DNA from: a virus
Taxonomy: Duplodnaviria; Caudoviricetes
Length of the DNA: 64,000 bases
Virus record (IMG/VR): IMGVR_UViG_3300020036_003099
Location: 1 to 64,000 of that record
Reading direction: 5' to 3' (one strand)
The stretch's first letter is position 1. The number at the start of each line of letters is the position of its first letter. Shown here piece after piece: positions 3,324 to 57,295 of this stretch. Below the pieces are notes generated by a model that did not search any database, had not been told where the DNA came from, and saw only the letters and a program-made list of their open reading frames with translations. A program made the translations under genes and the position numbers.

Positions 3324-4832
3324 TTAAACCACGCGCATAAACATGTACGGAGCAAAGCCGCCGCCGCCGAAGGACAAGGAGCTTGCTGAAGCAGGTAAAG
3401 AAGAAACAGTAGCCGCCATATAAGCAACACCATCTTGAGCCGTTGCACCTGTAGTGCCGTTTTTCCAGCTGTCAACACCAGCGTACACAAGTGTAGGGTT
3501 ACCTGTACCACCCAAAGCGCGGCAACCTAGCCAGTAAGTACCTGGGAAAACTGTAACGGATACTGTGGCTTCTTTTATTCCAATTGTCGTGAAAGGAACT
3601 GAGCTGGACTCAAAGATTTTTGCTCCAGGAGCGCCAGCAGAGTCAGCGTAAAGACCAAAAACACCGTTACAGCCAGCAACAGCACCGTCCACGACAACAC
3701 CTACACGCGTCCAAACCTTTTTCTCTGGGCAAACCCAAGGGGCCATCCAAAGAACGCTCGAAGTCATCGGTGTGGCTGAAAACAAGGCATTAATACCTTC
3801 AATACCGTAATACCTGTTATTCGCAACTGTTAGGCGGTTTCTAGGAACTACTTGTTGTAAACCAACTTCGGCTATACCGTCCGTCCTGAAAATCCAGTCA
3901 GAGTTGGAGTTGAACCCAAAATATTTGTTCTGGTATTGACCGTGATTTGTTAAAGGAGCCATATAGAACCCTACGCCGTAGAGTGCTGTGCCTCCTGCAG
4001 AGTTTTCTGCACAAGTATCAAAAGCTGTGATAAAAGCAGAAGCTACGTTGGCTGTACCTCTGTTCACACCAACACGACCTTCAACACCGATAACCAGCGC
4101 ATCAGTGCCTAGGGCATCCTTATAACCATAACCAATAACACCACCGTAATGTCCTACACCAGATATGTCGGCAGAAACCCCTACGTGGTTCGTTTTACCA
4201 AAAACAGCAAAGCGAACTGCTTGAGTGCCAGCAGCAGGAGACCAGTTGTACTCTACGAAGTTGTACCCAACATCCGAAAAGGTGCCCATGGCAACCAAAG
4301 ACGAAGAACAAGAAACTGAAATCTTTTGACCTGTGTATTGGATTCCCAAAGTGGCTGACGTAAAAGGTATGTCTGTAAATTTAGCGAAAGCTGAAGAAGA
4401 GGTTTTTGTCAGGTAGAGTGCGTCAGCCTCTGCTGGTTTCATAAAGGCAGAGGAAGATGTCTTGGTTAAGTATAAAGCATCAGCTTCAGTCTGTTTGATA
4501 AACGCCGAAGAAGAGACCTTGGTTAAATATAAAGCGTCCGCTTCAGTTTGCTTCATGAAGGCCGAGGAAGATGTTTTGGTTAAAAACAAGGAGGCCGCTG
4601 AGGCTGAAGTTATAAATCCAGAACCGTCAACAATACCTTGGGCCAAAGCTGAGGCTTCGGCGGAAGTAACGAAAGAATCAATGTCGGCGGAAGTAATAAA
4701 ACCTAAGCCCGTAGCAACTTGAGATAGAGTAGCCCTGCGGACACCCACGTTTTGAGAAATCAAAATGGAGTCTGTTGTTGAAACTTCAGTGGCTTGGGTA
4801 AACGTGTTACCGTCGTTCTTTATAAAACTCAT
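3324..4832 (-). CDS. Tail fibre/spike-like protein with internal 19-aa repeats
   Basis: Repeats of EADALYLTKTSSSAFMKQT; Gly/Ala/Ser-rich body; structural operon. Confidence 0.55.
   Translation of the reverse strand: MSFIKNDGNTFTQATEVSTTDSILISQNVGVRRATLSQVATGLGFITSADIDSFVTSAEASALAQGIVDGSGFITSASAASLFLTKTSSSAFMKQTEADALYLTKVSSSAFIKQTEADALYLTKTSSSAFMKPAEADALYLTKTSSSAFAKFTDIPFTSATLGIQYTGQKISVSCSSSLVAMGTFSDVGYNFVEYNWSPAAGTQAVRFAVFGKTNHVGVSADISGVGHYGGVIGYGYKDALGTDALVIGVEGRVGVNRGTANVASAFITAFDTCAENSAGGTALYGVGFYMAPLTNHGQYQNKYFGFNSNSDWIFRTDGIAEVGLQQVVPRNRLTVANNRYYGIEGINALFSATPMTSSVLWMAPWVCPEKKVWTRVGVVVDGAVAGCNGVFGLYADSAGAPGAKIFESSSVPFTTIGIKEATVSVTVFPGTYWLGCRALGGTGNPTLVYAGVDSWKNGTTGATAQDGVAYMAATVSSLPASASSLSFGGGGFAPYMFMRVV
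4387..4620 (-). repeat. About four tandem 57-nt coding repeats
   Basis: Protein repeat ADALYLTK(T/V)SSSAF(M/I)K(Q/P)(T/A)E with synonymous divergence. Confidence 0.85.
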
Positions 4833-32299: not shown

Positions 32300-32444
32300 C
32301 GTATGTCTACAGCAACGGCCCTTTTCCTTTTGGAAAAGACGCCAACTAATTTCCTCGCCTGAGGATGTAGCTCAGCTGGTTAGAGCGCCTGGTCAAAAGC
32401 TTGGAGGACGTTGGTTCGAATCCAACCATTAAAACAACATACCG
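32300..32444 (+). ncRNA. Y-RNA-like unit 4 with embedded tRNA core (D- and T-arms, truncated acceptor, no CCA)
   Basis: GTATGT/ACATAC closing stem, CTACAGCAAC motif, CTTTTCC-TTTT-GGAAAAG hairpin, TAGCTCAGCTGGTTAGAGC D-arm, GTTGG-TTCGAAT-CCAAC T-arm. Confidence 0.7.
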
Positions 32445-37599: not shown

Positions 37600-38487
37600 A
37601 TGTCGAACTTCAAGCCGTTAATCAAAATCAACGATGAGGTTATCCAATATAAAACCTGGAGGTTCCCTAGCGGGGAACTGGGGTTGGAGTTGGAACAAGA
37701 CTACGATTTCAGGGGTGACATGCACTGGTACGCCGAAATTGTCACCAGTGAAGACCTGTTTATTCTGGAGTTGATCAGGACCATTATACCGACTGACGTA
37801 AAATCAGTCCAATCTCTGCGCTTACCTTATCTCCCACACGGTAGACAGGATCGTAATACTACACCTAGAGCACCGTTCTCTCTAGACATCATTACTGACA
37901 GGCTCCAACGTTTGTATTTTGATCAGATAATTTTGACAACACCACACAGCAATGTTTCTGAATTGTCAATCACACACCCTGTCTCGGTCATCGTGCTAGA
38001 TGTAGAAGAATGGGTCGCAGAACAGCTGTGCGATTTTAGCGGTAATGAAATAACCAACCAAACTTTGTTTGTAGCTCCTGATGCTGGCGCTGAGAAGCGT
38101 GTGTACGCTATGGCTAAACACTGCGGGGTACCAAATGTGATGACCTGTTTTAAGAAGAGAGATCCTGCTACAGGGGAAATTAAAGGTCTTTACGTCCCTG
38201 ATGACTTTGAATACTTTGGTAAGCACGTAGTCGTGATCGATGACATCTGTGATGGCGGAGCTACCTTCATTCATCTGGCAGAAGCCCTGAAGAAAAAGGG
38301 AATAGTGAGCGAAGCGAACGATAAGTCGTTATCTTTATTCGTGACCCACGGGATCTTCTCGAACGGTGCCAGGGATAAGCTTAAAGCTGCGGGTTATGAT
38401 CGCGTGGAAGCTAGATACACGTTTATAGAGCAGAGGTTGGCTGCGTTGAGCGTAGCGAATGAAGAAAGGTTGAAGAACAATGGATAA
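37600..38487 (+). CDS. Ribose-phosphate pyrophosphokinase family protein (probable Adps of NARP1)
   Basis: FPSGE, PYLPHGRQDR, VAPDAGAEKR, KKRDPATGEI, VIDDICDGGATF, VTHGIFS. Confidence 0.9.
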   Translation: MSNFKPLIKINDEVIQYKTWRFPSGELGLELEQDYDFRGDMHWYAEIVTSEDLFILELIRTIIPTDVKSVQSLRLPYLPHGRQDRNTTPRAPFSLDIITDRLQRLYFDQIILTTPHSNVSELSITHPVSVIVLDVEEWVAEQLCDFSGNEITNQTLFVAPDAGAEKRVYAMAKHCGVPNVMTCFKKRDPATGEIKGLYVPDDFEYFGKHVVVIDDICDGGATFIHLAEALKKKGIVSEANDKSLSLFVTHGIFSNGARDKLKAAGYDRVEARYTFIEQRLAALSVANEERLKNNG

Positions 38488-38716
38488 TTGGTGGTTACTA
38501 ATCTCATACCTTGCAGTCGGTATTTTTTGGGTGTTATTTAGAGTTACGTCAAAAAGAAGTCAAGAAGGCTTGGTTGAGTTCAGGAAAACCACGGATCGCA
38601 CAGAACAACAAGTGAACGAATTACTTGGTTTTGTGGTTATTCTTGGTATTCTGACTTGGCCTTTATCAATTATTACTTTTCTTTATAGAAATTTATTCAC
38701 AGAAGATAAGGGATAA
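38480..38716 (+). CDS. Small two-TM membrane protein
   Basis: Two hydrophobic segments. Confidence 0.55.
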   Translation: MDNWWLLISYLAVGIFWVLFRVTSKRSQEGLVEFRKTTDRTEQQVNELLGFVVILGILTWPLSIITFLYRNLFTEDKG

Positions 38717-38801
38717 GCTTAAAGATGATGTATATATTTTGAAATCCGAATTTAAATGTGCTACCAACAAAGAATTACCTGAAGGGTACGACGAGTAACT
38801 T

Positions 38802-39437
38802 ATGGGCTACATATCTTCCATTCACGGATCGGGTCAATGGGTTACCTGTACCAACTGTCGAGGTAAGGGGTATACACAAGAAACAGACTACAATTTCGAA
38901 AAATGCGAAGTCTGTAACGGATACGGACGCGTTAAAAAAGCAGAAACAAAACCAACTTTAAAAGAGGAGACTATAACTATGAGCGGTACAAACTATTCCA
39001 CAGCAGTCATGCTTTTCAATGAAGATATTAAAGCTATCAGTATCGTTTACGAACCTGACGTTGACGGTAAACCTAAACAACAAAGGTACACCTTTAAGAC
39101 TCTCAATAAGGATCTAAAGAAAGGTGATCTCGTGGTTATCCCCACAGATACCCGACACGGCTACACCGTGGTCCTCGTGGATGCTGTTGACGTGGAAGTT
39201 GACTTTGAGTCATCTGTCCAACTCAAATGGATCGTGGATAAAGTCCACGTTGAAGGTTACCAAGAGATCCTGGCAAACGAAGCCAAGCTGGTGGATGTCA
39301 TGAAGAAATCCGAAGTGCGTCATAAGAAAGAAGAGATCAAAGGAAAAGTCTTCAGCTTTGTTAAAGAGGAAGAAATTAAAGCTTTTGCTATCACACACGC
39401 CCCTGTAGTAACAGCGCTAGAATCTAAAGAGGAATAA
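38802..39437 (+). CDS. Hypothetical protein with N-terminal DnaJ-type zinc finger; second in-frame start at 38980
   Basis: CTNCRGKG and CEVCNGYG; GAGGAG RBS before ATG 38980. Confidence 0.65.
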   Translation: MGYISSIHGSGQWVTCTNCRGKGYTQETDYNFEKCEVCNGYGRVKKAETKPTLKEETITMSGTNYSTAVMLFNEDIKAISIVYEPDVDGKPKQQRYTFKTLNKDLKKGDLVVIPTDTRHGYTVVLVDAVDVEVDFESSVQLKWIVDKVHVEGYQEILANEAKLVDVMKKSEVRHKKEEIKGKVFSFVKEEEIKAFAITHAPVVTALESKEE

Positions 39438-39763
39438 AGTTTACCGAGGCGATGCTGTGATCTGGTGCCTGAGACCTCACAGAAGCAGCACCCAACAAAG
39501 GCTACTCGCATTCGCTCCTAGCCTTTCTTCGCTTCGCTCAGAAAGAAGATCCAAGGATAAGTTTATCGTGAGGTTTAAAGGGCGTAGAGCCGCTTATCCC
39601 GAAATCTTCCTAACCGAAAGTAACGCGTAAATGCCTATTTGTTCACGCTGCTGCAATAAACTGGTAAAGCGTAAATCTGATAAGTCTTACTATTGTCGTA
39701 GACATGGTTGGATAAAAGAAATTAAACCGGAACCACTAACGTATTTAACGGAAGGCCAGACTT

Positions 39764-41221
39764 ATGACACACAACCTCCTCTTGATGACAGACGTATACA
39801 AGTTCGACCATGCAGCGCAATACCCAAAAGGCACCAACAAAATCTACTCTTATTTCTGCGCGAGAAAGGCGAGTGAAGAATATGGCTCTGAAACAGTTTT
39901 CTTTGGTCTTCAATACTACCTTAAGAAATACCTCTCTAAACCTGTAACAAAGGAAAACGTAGATGAATTCAAAGATGTATGTGATTCTATCCTTGGCCCT
40001 GGTGCTGTCGATTATAACCGCTTCTATGCTTTGGCTGAACTTGGCTACTTGCCACTTAAAATTAAAGCCGTACGAGAAGGCGAAATCGTTGGTATCAAAA
40101 ACGCTCTTTTCACATTAACCAACACTCACCCAGATTTCTACTGGCTCGTTAACTACATCGAAACCTTGCTTTTAAAAGTTTGGTACCCGATGACGGTAGC
40201 GACTATCTCTCACTCTTACAGAAAGCTGTGCTCGGACTATGCTGATAGAACCTGTGATGATAAAACACAACTACCTTTTCAAATACACGACTTCGGCTAC
40301 AGAGCTGTTTCGTCTGAAGAATCAGCAGGGCTTGGCGGTGCTGCACACTTGCTCAATTTCATGGGGACAGACACTACCGCAGGAATTACCTTTTTGCGTG
40401 ACTACTATTCTGGACAATATCCAATTGGGTTGTCCGTTCCGGCCAGCGAACACTCCGTGATGTGTGCTCACAGCCCTGACAGTCACGATTACCTGGCTAT
40501 TGAGAACATGCTCAAGCAATACCCCAAAGGCATCGTGTCGATTGTCTCTGATACGTTTGATCTTTGGAGAGCTGTGGACTGGTACTGCAACGAATTGAAA
40601 GATGACATCCTAGCCAGGGAAGGTAAAGTCGTTATCCGCCCTGACTCAGGCGACCCCGAGAAGATCTTTCTAGGCAACCCTGAAGCCGGTAACGAAATGG
40701 AACGTGACGGTCTCATAGAAACCCTTTGGAAACATTTTGGAGGTACCACAAATGCAAAAGGCTTTAAAGTCCTCGATCAAAGGATCGGTGCGATTTACGG
40801 AGATGCTATTTACTTTGCGAGAGCTAGAAGAATCTTTGCAGGTCTTGCAGAAAAAGGCTTTGCTTCTTCAAACGTTGTCTTCGGTATTGGGGGTATCCTT
40901 TTACAGTGCTGCACGAGGGATACCTATGGGTGTTCTCTTAAAGCGACTTACGCAGAGGTCGAAGGCGTTCCACGAGCGATTATGAAGGCCCCTAAAACGG
41001 ATGCTGCCAAGAATAGCCATAAGGGGCCCCTAAGGCTCAATATGAGCTATACAATGGACCCAGATAAAGACGGAGCTATCCCTGGTTCTGTTGATTACAT
41101 CACGCAGCAAGAACAAACTTGGGGGCAAGAATCTACAGGGTTTTTACAAACCGTTTACGAAGACGGTAAGTTAATTGAAGATATAACTTTAGAGGAACTC
41201 CGTAAAAAGCTTATGGTTTAA
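39764..41221 (+). CDS. Nicotinamide phosphoribosyltransferase family protein (probable Namat of NARP1)
   Basis: TDVYKFDH..QYP, FFGLQYYLK, HDFGYR, GTDT, VPASEHSVM, SIVSDTFD, IRPDSGDP, IYGDAI, KKNSHKG-type motif AKNSHKG. Confidence 0.92.
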   Translation: MTHNLLLMTDVYKFDHAAQYPKGTNKIYSYFCARKASEEYGSETVFFGLQYYLKKYLSKPVTKENVDEFKDVCDSILGPGAVDYNRFYALAELGYLPLKIKAVREGEIVGIKNALFTLTNTHPDFYWLVNYIETLLLKVWYPMTVATISHSYRKLCSDYADRTCDDKTQLPFQIHDFGYRAVSSEESAGLGGAAHLLNFMGTDTTAGITFLRDYYSGQYPIGLSVPASEHSVMCAHSPDSHDYLAIENMLKQYPKGIVSIVSDTFDLWRAVDWYCNELKDDILAREGKVVIRPDSGDPEKIFLGNPEAGNEMERDGLIETLWKHFGGTTNAKGFKVLDQRIGAIYGDAIYFARARRIFAGLAEKGFASSNVVFGIGGILLQCCTRDTYGCSLKATYAEVEGVPRAIMKAPKTDAAKNSHKGPLRLNMSYTMDPDKDGAIPGSVDYITQQEQTWGQESTGFLQTVYEDGKLIEDITLEELRKKLMV

Positions 41222-41238: not shown

Positions 41239-41745
41239 ATGGGTAAAATTTGAACAAAACGTAGCAACGCCAGGAAGAAATTACTCAAAATCAGAGATGC
41301 AAAAGTGTTAGAACAAGGCAACCGTTGCTACTGGTGTACGATAGATTTCGACACTGATAACCCACCTACTACAGAGCATCTTTCACCTTTAGGTCAAGGT
41401 GGAAGTGTAAAACATCCCGATAACATCGTAGCGGCCTGTCTTTACTGCAACTCTATGCGAAATACTGTCGGCTGCTACAACTGGAAAAGGCACATACACG
41501 AATGGCGAAAAACACTTGGTTCATCTCAGACACTCACTTCAGCCACGCCAACATCATTGTCTTTGAGCATGAAGGCAAGCGTATCCGTCCTTTTCAAACG
41601 ATTGAGGAACACGATGAATTACTTGTGGAAAATTGGAACAAACTTATTAAGCCCTCAGACCGCGTATATCATCTCGGAGATGTCGTCATCAACAGAAAAG
41701 CCCTACCCATCCTCAACAGACTTAACGGGAAAAAGAAACTCATAA
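41239..41745 (+). pseudogene. HNH endonuclease with in-frame TGA at codon 5 (alternatively GTG start at 41305)
   Basis: ATG GGT AAA ATT TGA, then open frame to CYWC...EHLSP..GG...NIVAACLYCN. Confidence 0.55.
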
Positions 41746-42050
41746 AGGGAAATCATGATATATTCAAGCTGGCAGACTACGCACCTTACTTTGAAGACAT
41801 ACTTGCTTATCGCATTTATCCAAGCCATGGTGTCATTTGTAGTCACATACCTATACATCCTTGTCATTTAAAATCCCGTTGGAGGCGAAATGTCCATGGA
41901 CATCTGCACCAGAATCTGGTAAACCTAGATTACATTGGGCCTGAATACGGTGACTTCGACAATTCGCCAGACTTTAGGTACGTTAACATTTGCGTAGAAC
42001 ACACTAACTGGAAACCGGTACATTTTGACGAGGTTATAAGTAATGGTTGA
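41502..42050 (+). CDS. Calcineurin-like metallophosphoesterase
   Basis: ISDTHFSH, HLGDV, KGNHD, SHIP, NVHGHLH. Confidence 0.9.
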   Translation: MAKNTWFISDTHFSHANIIVFEHEGKRIRPFQTIEEHDELLVENWNKLIKPSDRVYHLGDVVINRKALPILNRLNGKKKLIKGNHDIFKLADYAPYFEDILAYRIYPSHGVICSHIPIHPCHLKSRWRRNVHGHLHQNLVNLDYIGPEYGDFDNSPDFRYVNICVEHTNWKPVHFDEVISNG

Positions 42051-46852: not shown

Positions 46853-47094
46853 AAATTAAGTTAGCTAAAAAGCTTTTAGAATTTAACTTTTTTATCAGAC
46901 GTTTAGCTTATGTGCTCGACCCAGAACAGACGCAATCAGTGTTTAGTTTTTATTTCGACCCAGAAAAAGACAAAGTTAGATTTGTGCATAAAGCTTTGAA
47001 CGACTCTGTGTACGATAACTTTGGCATTCATTGGGCTGATTGGGTAGAAATTATTGCAGAAATGCAAAGTAGAAGAGATAACAAAATTGTTTAA
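46798..47094 (+). CDS. Hypothetical protein (start uncertain)
   Basis: Fills gap between polymerase and RNA ligase. Confidence 0.45.
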   Translation: MSPYRGVSRGGFMGTDALKIKLAKKLLEFNFFIRRLAYVLDPEQTQSVFSFYFDPEKDKVRFVHKALNDSVYDNFGIHWADWVEIIAEMQSRRDNKIV

Positions 47095-47620
47095 CGACCC
47101 TATCTTTGAAACCTTTAAACCTTTTGATAAAATATCCCGATTATTCGAACAACCCATTTGTGTCACCGAAAAAATCGACGGTACCAACGCAGTGGTTGTC
47201 ATCTCTGCAGACTGCACCGAGATCCGCGCTGGCAGCAGAACCAGATGGATTAGTCCTGAGGATGATAACTACGGGTTTGCCAAATGGGTAGAAGCCAACA
47301 AGGAAGACTTAAAGCTACTTGGGCCTGGCTATCATTTCGGTGAATGGTGGGGACAAGGTATCCAACGAGGCTACGGGATGACTAAAAAAGTCTTCTCTCT
47401 TTTCAACGTCAACAGGTGGGATAACGAATCAAGGCCAGCTTGCTGTGACGTGGTTCCAACAGTTTTCAAGGGGAAAGATTGGCCTGAAGATCCTATCCAC
47501 AAGAAACTTCCACATTCCCTCGCAGCAGCCAAATACGGCGTAACCTTTGAGGCCACCGAGGGGCTAGTCTATTGGTTCGCTAACGCTAAAATGTATTTCA
47601 AAGTTATTTGGGATAAATAA
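47054..47620 (+). CDS. RNA ligase family nucleotidyltransferase
   Basis: TEKIDGTNA motif I, AGSRTRWI, DNYGFAKWV, FGEWWGQGIQ, EGLV, KVIW. Confidence 0.8.
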   Translation: MQKCKVEEITKLFNDPIFETFKPFDKISRLFEQPICVTEKIDGTNAVVVISADCTEIRAGSRTRWISPEDDNYGFAKWVEANKEDLKLLGPGYHFGEWWGQGIQRGYGMTKKVFSLFNVNRWDNESRPACCDVVPTVFKGKDWPEDPIHKKLPHSLAAAKYGVTFEATEGLVYWFANAKMYFKVIWDK

Positions 47621-55698: not shown

Positions 55699-56093
55699 CT
55701 TTAAACGTACGCAACAGAATGGCTGTGACCACAAACCCTTTTCAAGGTGACTACAAGAAAGTCCTGTGTGTTTGCTCTGCAGGTCTTCTCAGGTCGCCTA
55801 CAGCAGCCTTTGTTCTTTCCAATCCCCCTTTTAATTTCAACACAAGATCTGTAGGAATAACCACAGAGTTTGCTCTCATACCCCTAGATGAAGCCTTGCT
55901 TTTCTGGAGTCAAGAGATTGTTTGTATGGAGAATTGGCAAAAAGAAAGAATTGAGACCCTGTTAAGAGAAGCAAATTTAAAGCGTCCCGTTATCAACTTA
56001 AGTATCGATGATCGTCACAGTTACAGAGATCCTGAGCTGATGCGCTTGGTTCGAGAACAATACGTACTATTAAAAGGCTTACCCAATGAATAA
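55695..56093 (+). CDS. Low-molecular-weight protein tyrosine phosphatase-like protein
   Basis: VLCVCSAGLLRSPTA CX5R P-loop; I.D...Y.DP. Confidence 0.8.
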   Translation: MTLNVRNRMAVTTNPFQGDYKKVLCVCSAGLLRSPTAAFVLSNPPFNFNTRSVGITTEFALIPLDEALLFWSQEIVCMENWQKERIETLLREANLKRPVINLSIDDRHSYRDPELMRLVREQYVLLKGLPNE

Positions 56094-56325
56094 AAACAAT
56101 TTAAACGCAGAAGAAAAAGAACTCCTAACGACACCCATTAGGGTTCTCCTGTCACAAGAAACAGATAACGGAGAAAGAGATCTATCTTTCTTTCACAGAG
56201 CCCTACGTATTTGGGACCGTCTAGCACAAGCCAATTGGGATACCCCTAGGGCTCCCCGTGAAGATTGGCTTTATGAAAGAAATGGGGATGAAACAGGTTC
56301 GACCACAGCACCATCTAAGCTGTGA
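56086..56325 (+). CDS. Hypothetical protein; 3' end overlaps the tmRNA tRNA-like domain
   Basis: Coupled ORF. Confidence 0.5.
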   Translation: MNKNNLNAEEKELLTTPIRVLLSQETDNGERDLSFFHRALRIWDRLAQANWDTPRAPREDWLYERNGDETGSTTAPSKL

Positions 56326-56356
56326 CACCACGGGGCAGTGCCGTGCATCTCCACCA
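56284..56356 (+). ncRNA. ssrA: tmRNA tRNA-like domain only (73 nt, alanyl identity)
   Basis: GGGGATG/CATCTCC acceptor with G3-U70, A73, CCA; stemless D-loop AAACAGGTTCGAC; CACAGC/GCTGTG helix closed by 9-nt loop; T-arm CACGG-GGCAGTG-CCGTG. Confidence 0.88.
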
Positions 56357-56366
56357 AACTTTATAG

Positions 56367-56382
56367 TTAATAAAAGGTTAAC
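56367..56382. promoter_or_regulatory. CtrA-type box TTAA-N7-TTAAC
   Basis: TTAA TAAAAGG TTAAC, 11 nt upstream of a -35 box. Confidence 0.4.
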
Positions 56383-56393
56383 AAAAAATACTG

Positions 56394-56423
56394 TTGACAA
56401 ACCCTCTGAGAATCCTGTAGGGT
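56394..56423 (+). promoter_or_regulatory. sigma70-like promoter for tag RNA and tRNA cluster
   Basis: TTGACA-18 nt-(TG)TAGGGT. Confidence 0.6.
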
Positions 56424-56429
56424 ACTCTT

Positions 56430-56549
56430 AGAAGCAAACGATAACTCTTTTACTGAAGTTCGCCTTGCGGCCTAATTCAGTTACCTAATCTTCCTCACAC
56501 GAAGTATCTACCGAGAAAGCCCTCTTAATCCCCACTAGAGGGCTTTCTC
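56430..56549 (+). ncRNA. tmRNA mRNA-like domain: tag frame ANDNSFTEVRLAA* (56434-56475) plus hairpins
   Basis: GCA AAC GAT AAC TCT TTT ACT GAA GTT CGC CTT GCG GCC TAA; no in-frame start after upstream TGA at 56407; stop enclosed by ACTGAA/TTCAGT helix; 13-bp hairpin 56513-56549. Confidence 0.8.
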
Positions 56550-56564
56550 ACCCCTTTCATACAT

Positions 56565-56644
56565 AGCAGGGTAGCTTAGTCCGGTCTAAAGCACAGCGTT
56601 CATACCGCTGATAACGTGGGTTCAAATCCCACCCGCTGCAACCA
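56565..56644 (+). tRNA. tRNA with CAT anticodon (Met/fMet/Ile2 identity unresolved)
   Basis: Anticodon arm CAGCG-TTCATAC-CGCTG, T-arm GTGGG-TTCAAAT-CCCAC, encoded CCA; 1:72 mismatch and a bulge in the acceptor stem. Confidence 0.85.
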
Positions 56645-56659
56645 ATCAATACATGTATA

Positions 56660-56735
56660 GACCAGGTGGCAGAATGACGATGCGCTAGATTGCAGATCTG
56701 GTTTAACGCGGGTTTGATTCCCGTCCTGGTCTCCA
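56660..56735 (+). tRNA. tRNA-Cys(GCA)
   Basis: GACCAGG/CCTGGTC acceptor, U73, CCA; loop TTGCAGA. Confidence 0.9.
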
Positions 56736-56765
56736 TGTATACAAAGTAAAAACAAATAAACATAG

Positions 56766-57116
56766 GTGCAACATCTTACCCCGCGCCAAAGAAGGCGCTA
56801 TCTAAAGAAACAAAACTACCGCTCATTCCTTGACTCATTAGTTTGTCAGATCTGCGGTCACGATAAACCCCATCACATAGAGCTTCATCACTTAGATCCA
56901 ACTTCTAAGGAAGCCAACGTATCCAGACGAATTAACCAGTGCCAATCAGATGTCGCTATCATAACTGAGATTGAAAAGTGCGCTGCTTTGTGTTCTTATT
57001 GCCACAAGGATGTTCATAAGGGATTGCACAGCGATAAAATATTAGAACCGTTAAACTATATCGGTGTAGCACAGGGACAGTGCGCGGGTCTCCAAAACCT
57101 TGAGACGTTGGTTTGA
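56766..57116 (+). CDS. HNH homing endonuclease in tRNA cluster
   Basis: CQICG...IELHHLDP..KEANVS...EIEKCAALCSYCHKDVH. Confidence 0.85.
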   Translation: MQHLTPRQRRRYLKKQNYRSFLDSLVCQICGHDKPHHIELHHLDPTSKEANVSRRINQCQSDVAIITEIEKCAALCSYCHKDVHKGLHSDKILEPLNYIGVAQGQCAGLQNLETLV

Positions 57117-57134
57117 ATCCAGCCGCCGGTGCCA
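57060..57134 (+). tRNA. tRNA-Trp(CCA)
   Basis: ATCGGTG/CGCCGGT acceptor, loop CTCCAAA, G73, CCA; overlaps 3' end of HNH ORF. Confidence 0.85.
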
Positions 57135-57139
57135 ATTAT

Positions 57140-57216
57140 TCTCACTAGCCGAACAAGGCGGACGGAGCTGACTGTTAATCAGCGTATGCAAGGTTCGATT
57201 CCTTGAGTGAGAACCA
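57140..57216 (+). tRNA. tRNA-Asn(GTT)
   Basis: TCTCACT/AGTGAGA acceptor, GCTGA-CTGTTAA-TCAGC, CAAGG-TTCGATT-CCTTG, CCA. Confidence 0.88.
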
Positions 57217-57221
57217 ACTAC

Positions 57222-57295
57222 GACTACATCGTTCAGTGACAGGACCTGGGATTGTCTATCCTAAGACCGGAGTTTGATTCTCCGTGTAGTCGCCA
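57222..57295 (+). tRNA. tRNA-Asp(GTC)
   Basis: GACTACA/TGTAGTC acceptor, G73, CCA; loop TTGTCTA. Confidence 0.85.

Follow-up and report, generated by a model that had tools for sequence, protein, structure and literature searches.

A phage locus with a closed tmRNA tRNA-like domain and a separate tag RNA: a candidate for trans-translation with an unlinked template

To our knowledge, every model of trans-translation has the template delivered because it is tied to the tRNA-like domain (TLD), either covalently or, in two-piece tmRNA, via the acceptor stem and helix 2. The phage locus analysed here appears to encode the two parts as separate RNAs, which raises the question of what such a pair could do. 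The window, that is, the whole stretch of 64,000 nucleotides under analysis, covers the greater part of a phage genome that is complete at 73.6 kb and has direct terminal repeats. Its genes from about 20 kb to 58 kb lie on the + strand and include a T7-type primase-helicase, a family A DNA polymerase, a ribonucleotide reductase, NAMPT, PhoH and an RNA-ligase-domain protein.

The original prediction had placed a complete 73-nt TLD in this genome, with a G3-U70 pair, A73, CCA, a stemless D loop and a GGCAGTG T loop, and the RNA folds exactly as claimed (Table 1). That helix 2 is closed by a 9-nt loop and holds no mRNA domain inside was confirmed by the sequence and by the alignment to the tmRNA model RF00023, in which a relaxed-threshold Rfam search matched just the two ends and deleted the middle 328 or more model positions. 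This match has a score of 20 bits (E 4e-6) and does not reach the gathering score of 47; TLDs of the rumen-type relatives described below (set B) score 47.5–49.5 bits against the same model and threshold. With a covariance model made from relatives, the window TLD scores 54 bits (E 2.6e-11). Its folding energy is unremarkable by itself (z −1.1), and the support for the TLD thus comes from family covariation, not from folding energy. At the sequence level, the window TLD reads ACAC where all relatives carry a conserved GGAC, and its T loop resembles the GGCRGUA loops of about 70 permuted phage tmRNAs.

Table 1. Features of the split locus and of selected phage genes, in window coordinates.
Feature	Position	Strand	Details and evidence
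Stand-alone tmRNA TLD, 73 nt	56284-56356	+	sequence, fold, covariance models
TLD acceptor stem with G3-U70	56284-90/56346-52	+	GGGGAUG...CAUCUCC
TLD D loop, 13 nt, stemless	56291-56303	+	3' end UUCGAC
TLD helix 2, 6 bp	56304-09/56319-24	+	capped by 9-nt loop
TLD T arm, 5-bp stem	56329-33/56341-45	+	loop GGCAGUG
ACCA end (A73 + CCA) of TLD	56353-56	+	
Spacer/leader with AU-rich hairpin	56357-56433	+	
-35-like TTGACA	56395-56400	+	within spacer
Weak -10-like TAGGGT	56419-56424	+	within spacer
Tag reading frame	56434-56475	+	resume codon GCA, ANDNSFTEVRLAA, stop TAA; sequence, RF04321
Helix-5-like hairpin ACUGAA/UUCAGU around tag end and stop codon	56452-56481	+	arms 56452-57/56476-81; folding
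Tag RNA 3' domain	56490-56549	+	small hairpin 56490-93/56501-04 and 13-bp hairpin 56513-25/56537-49
Five tRNA genes (Met, Cys, Trp, Asn, Asp)	56564-57295	+	ARAGORN, Rfam
RNA_ligase-domain protein, short	47054-47620		PF09414, E 7e-11; PHROG 548
Phosphoesterase	41502-42050		
NAD salvage genes (NAMPT, PRPP-synthetase-like)	37600-41221		

Standard annotation overlooks the locus. ARAGORN called five tRNAs just downstream and neither the TLD nor the tag RNA as tmRNA, Rfam at gathering scores reported tRNAs alone in the window, and no Rfam mt-tmRNA match was found at the locus. Running the ARAGORN and Rfam tmRNA models, as had been suggested, yielded matches to RF00023 and RF04321 below threshold, but nothing at curated thresholds. 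A 79-codon ORF with no family match (window 56086-56325, + strand) overlaps the first 42 nt of the TLD; it may be a genuine gene that shares this sequence with the RNA.

Pattern scans of viral contigs for similar contiguous TLDs (mini-TLDs) returned many, with lengths of 59–90 nt. A covariance model built from 17 of these sequences and searched in 100 sources gave 99 matches, 83 of them distinct, so that the phage family has at least 83 members. Pairing is seen in 96.7% of the cells of the 83-sequence alignment, whereas shuffled versions reach 71% and versions with slid partners about 50%; this alignment was fitted to the model, which favours pairing, and the margin is still large. All nine helix-2 and T-stem pairs covary. 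The helix-2 loops of the relatives are shorter than in the window, with 3–5 nt, and a subclass of 80–82 nt carries a conserved AAGCCNAAGUG-like motif at the helix-2 tip. About 98 of 101 distinct mini-TLD loci in viral contigs have no tag nearby, and L027 and L028 alone carry a frame within the fetched flanks, as scored by a detector that required ANDN and would count strongly diverged tags as absent. Given this rarity, the split form is a minority beside tag-less TLDs, and a TLD can evidently be useful alone. At least 100 distinct tag-less mini-TLD genes of 59–90 nt were collected from viral contigs (L004-L029, L150-L250).

The start-less tag frame predicted beyond the CCA, with its stop inside a hairpin, was likewise found in place, 77 nt after the CCA. 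Reading back in frame from the tag, a TGA is reached at 56407 with no ATG, GTG or TTG on the way; the stop codon of the tag sits in the inner loop of the helix-5-like hairpin. The permuted tmRNA model RF04321 aligns to positions 56423-56475 at 23.5 bits, below its gathering score of 47, and the tag RNA region (56428-56552) has a folding z of −5.2. In the window, the tag itself is the sole part that still matches an alpha-type coding piece. A clear pseudoknot motif is absent, the 3' domain is degenerate compared with set B, and no close relative of the window's own tag RNA was found. The layout is neither one-piece nor permuted, as originally described, given the capped helix 2 and the missing 5' acceptor strand before the tag.

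Two other readings of the region were rejected. A hidden permuted gene would need a second 5' acceptor strand, and none was seen downstream, nor was any GGGG..UCGAC present between the CCA and the tag. An ordinary small ORF is contradicted by the lack of an in-frame start codon in the window, L027 or L028. Set B does show an in-frame TTG or ATG upstream of the tag, with no visible ribosome-binding site, and its tag frames may be translated in the ordinary way.

The original prediction had also proposed a search of other phages for a TLD followed by an ANDN..AA frame. The layout, with an intact TLD and then a separate tag RNA on the same strand, recurs: about 12 further loci, viral or metagenomic and representing at least four lineages, share it, and their TLD-to-tag gap of 55 to about 700 nt can contain tRNA genes, a protein gene or other inserts. 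We grouped as set A the window, L027 and L028/L259, the members other than the window having been found through the TLD alone. The L027 tag reads ANDNSFDSTYLMAA and then a stop, 64 nt past the CCA, while L028 and L259 carry ANDNVSQFQARVAA and a stop 147 nt past the CCA, with a tRNA gene between. Set B comes from rumen-type metagenomes and is counted as ten loci: L252, L256, L257, L258, L262, L263 (the same as L267), L265, L266 and L436, the last from a metagenome-assembled genome (MAG). Its tags read ANDNYKLSAIAA and a stop, or close variants, 55 to about 700 nt downstream of the TLD, and both modules are present in every set-B contig long enough.

Two loci present additional features. L436 (G001 contig C6) is a 245-kb contig binned into a rumen Bacilli MAG, and it carries TLD, tag RNA and 18 tRNA genes; the same MAG has its own one-piece tmRNA (tag ANNNQTLAFAA) beside smpB on another contig, with L438 noted alongside. 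The L436 contig may be a phage binned with its host. In L348, the 100 nt after a TLD at 3612-3682 with an alpha-type T loop hold a very short, degenerate frame as well as a pseudoknot motif, GUAACAGAA; this locus may stand midway between the split form and the tag-less one.

Searches through the genomic neighbourhood were less productive. None of the loci around homologues of the neighbouring 132-aa protein and of PhoH (at most 59% identical to the queries) has a TLD or tag, blastn of the locus against cultured phages returned nothing or the intervening tRNA alone, and no conserved neighbouring protein was found. A common phage lineage for L027 and this phage was considered and rejected, as this phage's DNA polymerase finds no counterpart in the L027 record.

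The nine set-B tag RNAs share 95% identity over 118 nt, between flanks that cannot be aligned. The structure that we propose for these RNAs combines a hairpin in the leader, a long one at the tag and an H-type pseudoknot. Its pairing reaches 99.4%, and at three pairs both bases have been exchanged, where shuffles give 0.4. From lineage to lineage, the codons for ANDN vary at their third positions (GCA/GCG, AAC/AAT, GAT/GAC, AAC/AAT), with L266 as the sole exception: its GCG to GUG change alters the residue and also preserves an RNA pair. Apart from this codon change, all five tag frames begin with ANDN, and every tag closes with a hydrophobic residue, then AA or AV, then the stop. With mostly synonymous change in ANDN and conserved tag ends, the tag RNA looks like a translated template.

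The origin of both RNAs can be traced by comparison with permuted tmRNAs. When viral sequences were scanned for a CCA with ANDN after it, most of the matches were genuine permuted tmRNAs of phages, with GGCRGUA T loops, a short helix 2, no PK1 and a post-tag pseudoknot with the loop motif GCAACAGAA. The alpha_tmRNA model RF01849 matched the tag modules of L258 (46.7 bits), L263 (39.5), L265 (36.2) and L028 (25.4), all under its gathering score of 50; in these four the alignment opens about 13 nt upstream of the resume codon, continues as far as the coding piece's 3' end and takes in the terminal GGCAACAGAA pseudoknot, which L028/L259 keep via two pair-preserving changes. These matches, pseudoknot included, indicate that the tag RNA is an alpha-type coding piece minus its TLD strands. 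The comparison indicates that both RNAs descend from a two-piece (permuted) tmRNA of alphaproteobacterial type. Specifically, the coding piece would have given up its 5' acceptor strand, D loop and helix-2 strand to the acceptor piece, the fusion being the TLD, and what was left of the coding piece would stand alone.

The locus has much in common with the permuted two-piece tmRNAs (RF01849, RF04321; Caulobacter, phage Melnitz, PMC9004378): the GGCRGUA T loop type, an ANDN...AA tag, the stop in a hairpin, two mature RNAs, here predicted, and a site beside phage tRNA genes, to which relatives of the window tag RNA add the terminal pseudoknot. In the permuted form, however, the CCA piece comes first, the coding piece holds the 5' acceptor strand and the RNAs are held by the acceptor stem and helix 2, whereas the window TLD is one closed RNA and its tag RNA has no TLD strand. 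The standard one-piece tmRNA (RF00023) shares the G3-U70 acceptor stem, the UUCGAC end of the D loop and a start-less tag frame, but it is a single RNA whose helix 2 encloses the tag along with four pseudoknots, in contrast to the capped helix 2 and the tag past the CCA seen here. Jakobid mitochondrial tmRNA has lost the internal mRNA-like domain, as has the window TLD; it differs in having permuted genes and no tag RNA. The mycobacteriophage DS6A likewise has a contiguous mini-TLD and a loop-closed helix 2 (class 'Standard, no CDS'; SmpB titration proposed; PMC4131195, PMC11915505). DS6A was reported without any tag frame, whereas the window TLD is accompanied by a tag RNA gene, an arrangement conserved in set B. 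Tag-less phage TLDs being already published, only the added separate tag RNA is new. Our full-text literature search found permuted phage tmRNAs, tag-less TLDs and a 2025 tmRNA database paper, and it did not find a TLD with an unlinked tag RNA.

The 6-bp TCTAAG/CTTAGA match that the original prediction had pointed to, with the caution that it might be chance, does exist, but the TLD-tag duplex energy is at the level of shuffled sequences and the match is missing in relatives, so it was discarded as a tether. RNAduplex energies between TLD and tag RNA equal those of dinucleotide shuffles at six loci, and when the tag RNA was compared by hand with helix 2 and the D loop of the TLD, no covariation was found. 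L258 and L266 have the same helix 2 and different leader hairpins, and in L257 the D loop is altered with no compensating change in the tag RNA. Taken together with the 3–5-nt helix-2 loops of the relatives, these results make the 6-bp match a product of chance. The L436 tag RNA was also compared with the one-piece tmRNA of the same MAG, a host assignment that is uncertain, and their pairing was no better than in shuffles. As far as the sequences can tell, there is no base-pairing tether between TLD and tag RNA.

How the tag RNA is made can be partly predicted. The claim of a separate TTGACA/TAGGGT promoter was not supported: both hexamers are present, but the consensus promoter scan of the locus called none and the -10 hexamer matches only 3 of 6 positions, although the -35 position is common to set A. 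The -35-like hexamer (TTGACA, TTGAAA or TTGATT) begins 39–40 nt 5' of the resume codon in the window, L027 and L028/L259, and 17–18 nt after it a TAnnnT-type hexamer occurs in the window and L027, and TAnnnA in L028/L259. On this basis, the tag RNA is predicted to start 2–4 nt before GCA in the window and 2–6 nt before the resume codon across set A. At the other end, the terminator scan of the locus called none, and the 13-bp hairpin (56513-56549) is probably no terminator, since no U tract follows it. The 3' end is probably made by RNase P cutting at tRNA-Met (56564), and the tRNA cluster is probably co-transcribed and processed with the TLD and tag RNA.

Within this cluster, an HNH endonuclease ORF (window 56766-57116, + strand; PHROG 2255, E 6e-17) lies between tRNA-Cys and tRNA-Trp and overlaps the first 57 nt or so of tRNA-Trp; it is a possible homing endonuclease. 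Far from the cluster, an isolated Rfam tRNA match (window 32365-32429, + strand, 39.9 bits, model positions 5-66 only) with no ARAGORN call may be a truncated or odd tRNA-like element. In set B, the tag leaders of L258, L263, L265 and L252 contain an 8–9-bp hairpin just 5' of the conserved AUUGACUGG of the tag RNA, whose sequence varies by locus while the pairing is always kept. This hairpin could act in processing, as an operator, or to terminate transcripts that arrive from upstream.

The phage would depend on its host for the remaining components. No smpB was found in the phage, and host factors are therefore needed. The DNA polymerase is at most 31% identical to those of Pelagibacter, Rhizobium and Roseobacter podophages, a similarity that hints at an alphaproteobacterial host.

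With these elements, we propose that the TLD, working with host SmpB, AlaRS and EF-Tu, carries out rescue and that the free tag RNA serves these factors as template, a proposal to which we give slightly less than an even chance. Both RNAs would be cut out of a long + strand transcript with its tRNA array by RNase P and 3' processing, the tag RNA possibly coming from its own weak promoter. Once charged by host AlaRS, the TLD would be delivered by host SmpB and EF-Tu to ribosomes that have stalled on broken mRNA. When alanine has been transferred and translocation has taken place, the mRNA channel, now empty, would accept the free tag RNA, maybe positioned by SmpB contacts with a few bases 5' of the resume codon. 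The ribosome would then add ANDNSFTEVRLAA and terminate at the tag stop, so that rescued peptides would end in AANDNSFTEVRLAA. We know of no mechanism that loads an untethered template. The absence of a duplex and of covariation, together with the oddities of the window (ACAC, the poor -10 and no close relative), weakens the proposal. The fuller reading, a three-component trans-translation in which rescue by alanyl-TLD and SmpB is followed by loading of a free, unlinked and unpaired RNA as tag and termination template, is in our estimate slightly less likely still.

The principal competitor is that the TLD acts alone, as proposed for DS6A, by titrating SmpB or rescuing ribosomes without tagging, and that the tag RNA does something else, such as regulation or serving as a decoy that binds SmpB, S1 or RNase R. 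Among phages, mini-TLDs without a tag are the most frequent form, SmpB titration is already in the literature (PMC4131195, PMC11915505), and the failure to find a TLD-tag tether fits this explanation as well. A decoy, however, needs no open frame with a resume codon, synonymous ANDN change and AA-stop in every lineage, and independent jobs do not account for the strict co-occurrence of both modules in set B; we regard this competitor as less likely than the pair in trans. The tag RNA could instead be what is left of a permuted tmRNA after its TLD was joined up again, now decaying, with only the TLD under selection. L348, with its TLD, degenerate short frame and pseudoknot motif, looks like a step on that path, and the degenerate 3' domain of the window's tag RNA, compared with set B, fits it too. 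Yet tag modules are intact in at least four divergent lineages, and the set-B RNAs keep their 95% identity over 118 nt, with compensatory changes, between unalignable flanks, which makes simple decay improbable. Of the options originally listed, the pair acting in trans is favoured over a decoy, and also over a relic, by co-occurrence, open AA-stop frames and synonymous ANDN codons, as a candidate function and not a settled one.

It is also conceivable that the RNAs are joined or tethered after transcription, by ligation, by a bridging phage protein or by pairing too subtle to detect, to give something like an ordinary tmRNA. The phage does encode the RNA_ligase-domain protein and the phosphoesterase, which with the NAD salvage genes may form an RNA repair set. 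Co-occurrence of an RNA ligase with the split layout was nevertheless unsupported: no ligase was found in the L027 fragment, and the L436 contig gave a below-threshold match alone. Moreover, no conserved neighbouring protein was found that could act as a bridge, and the CCA end must stay free for charging. This is, in our view, the least probable of the explanations considered, a shade below the remnant.

Since ARAGORN and Rfam at curated thresholds miss both genes, such loci, plus the at least 100 tag-less mini-TLD genes, go unannotated. For phages, trans action of the pair would explain how they could alternate between untagged rescue by the TLD alone and tagged rescue by TLD and tag RNA together. 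With the tie absent and both parts apparently under selection, these loci offer a natural test of the linkage assumption, namely of whether SmpB and the ribosome can capture a free template. If the three-component reading is true, physical linkage of the tRNA and mRNA functions would not be required for trans-translation.
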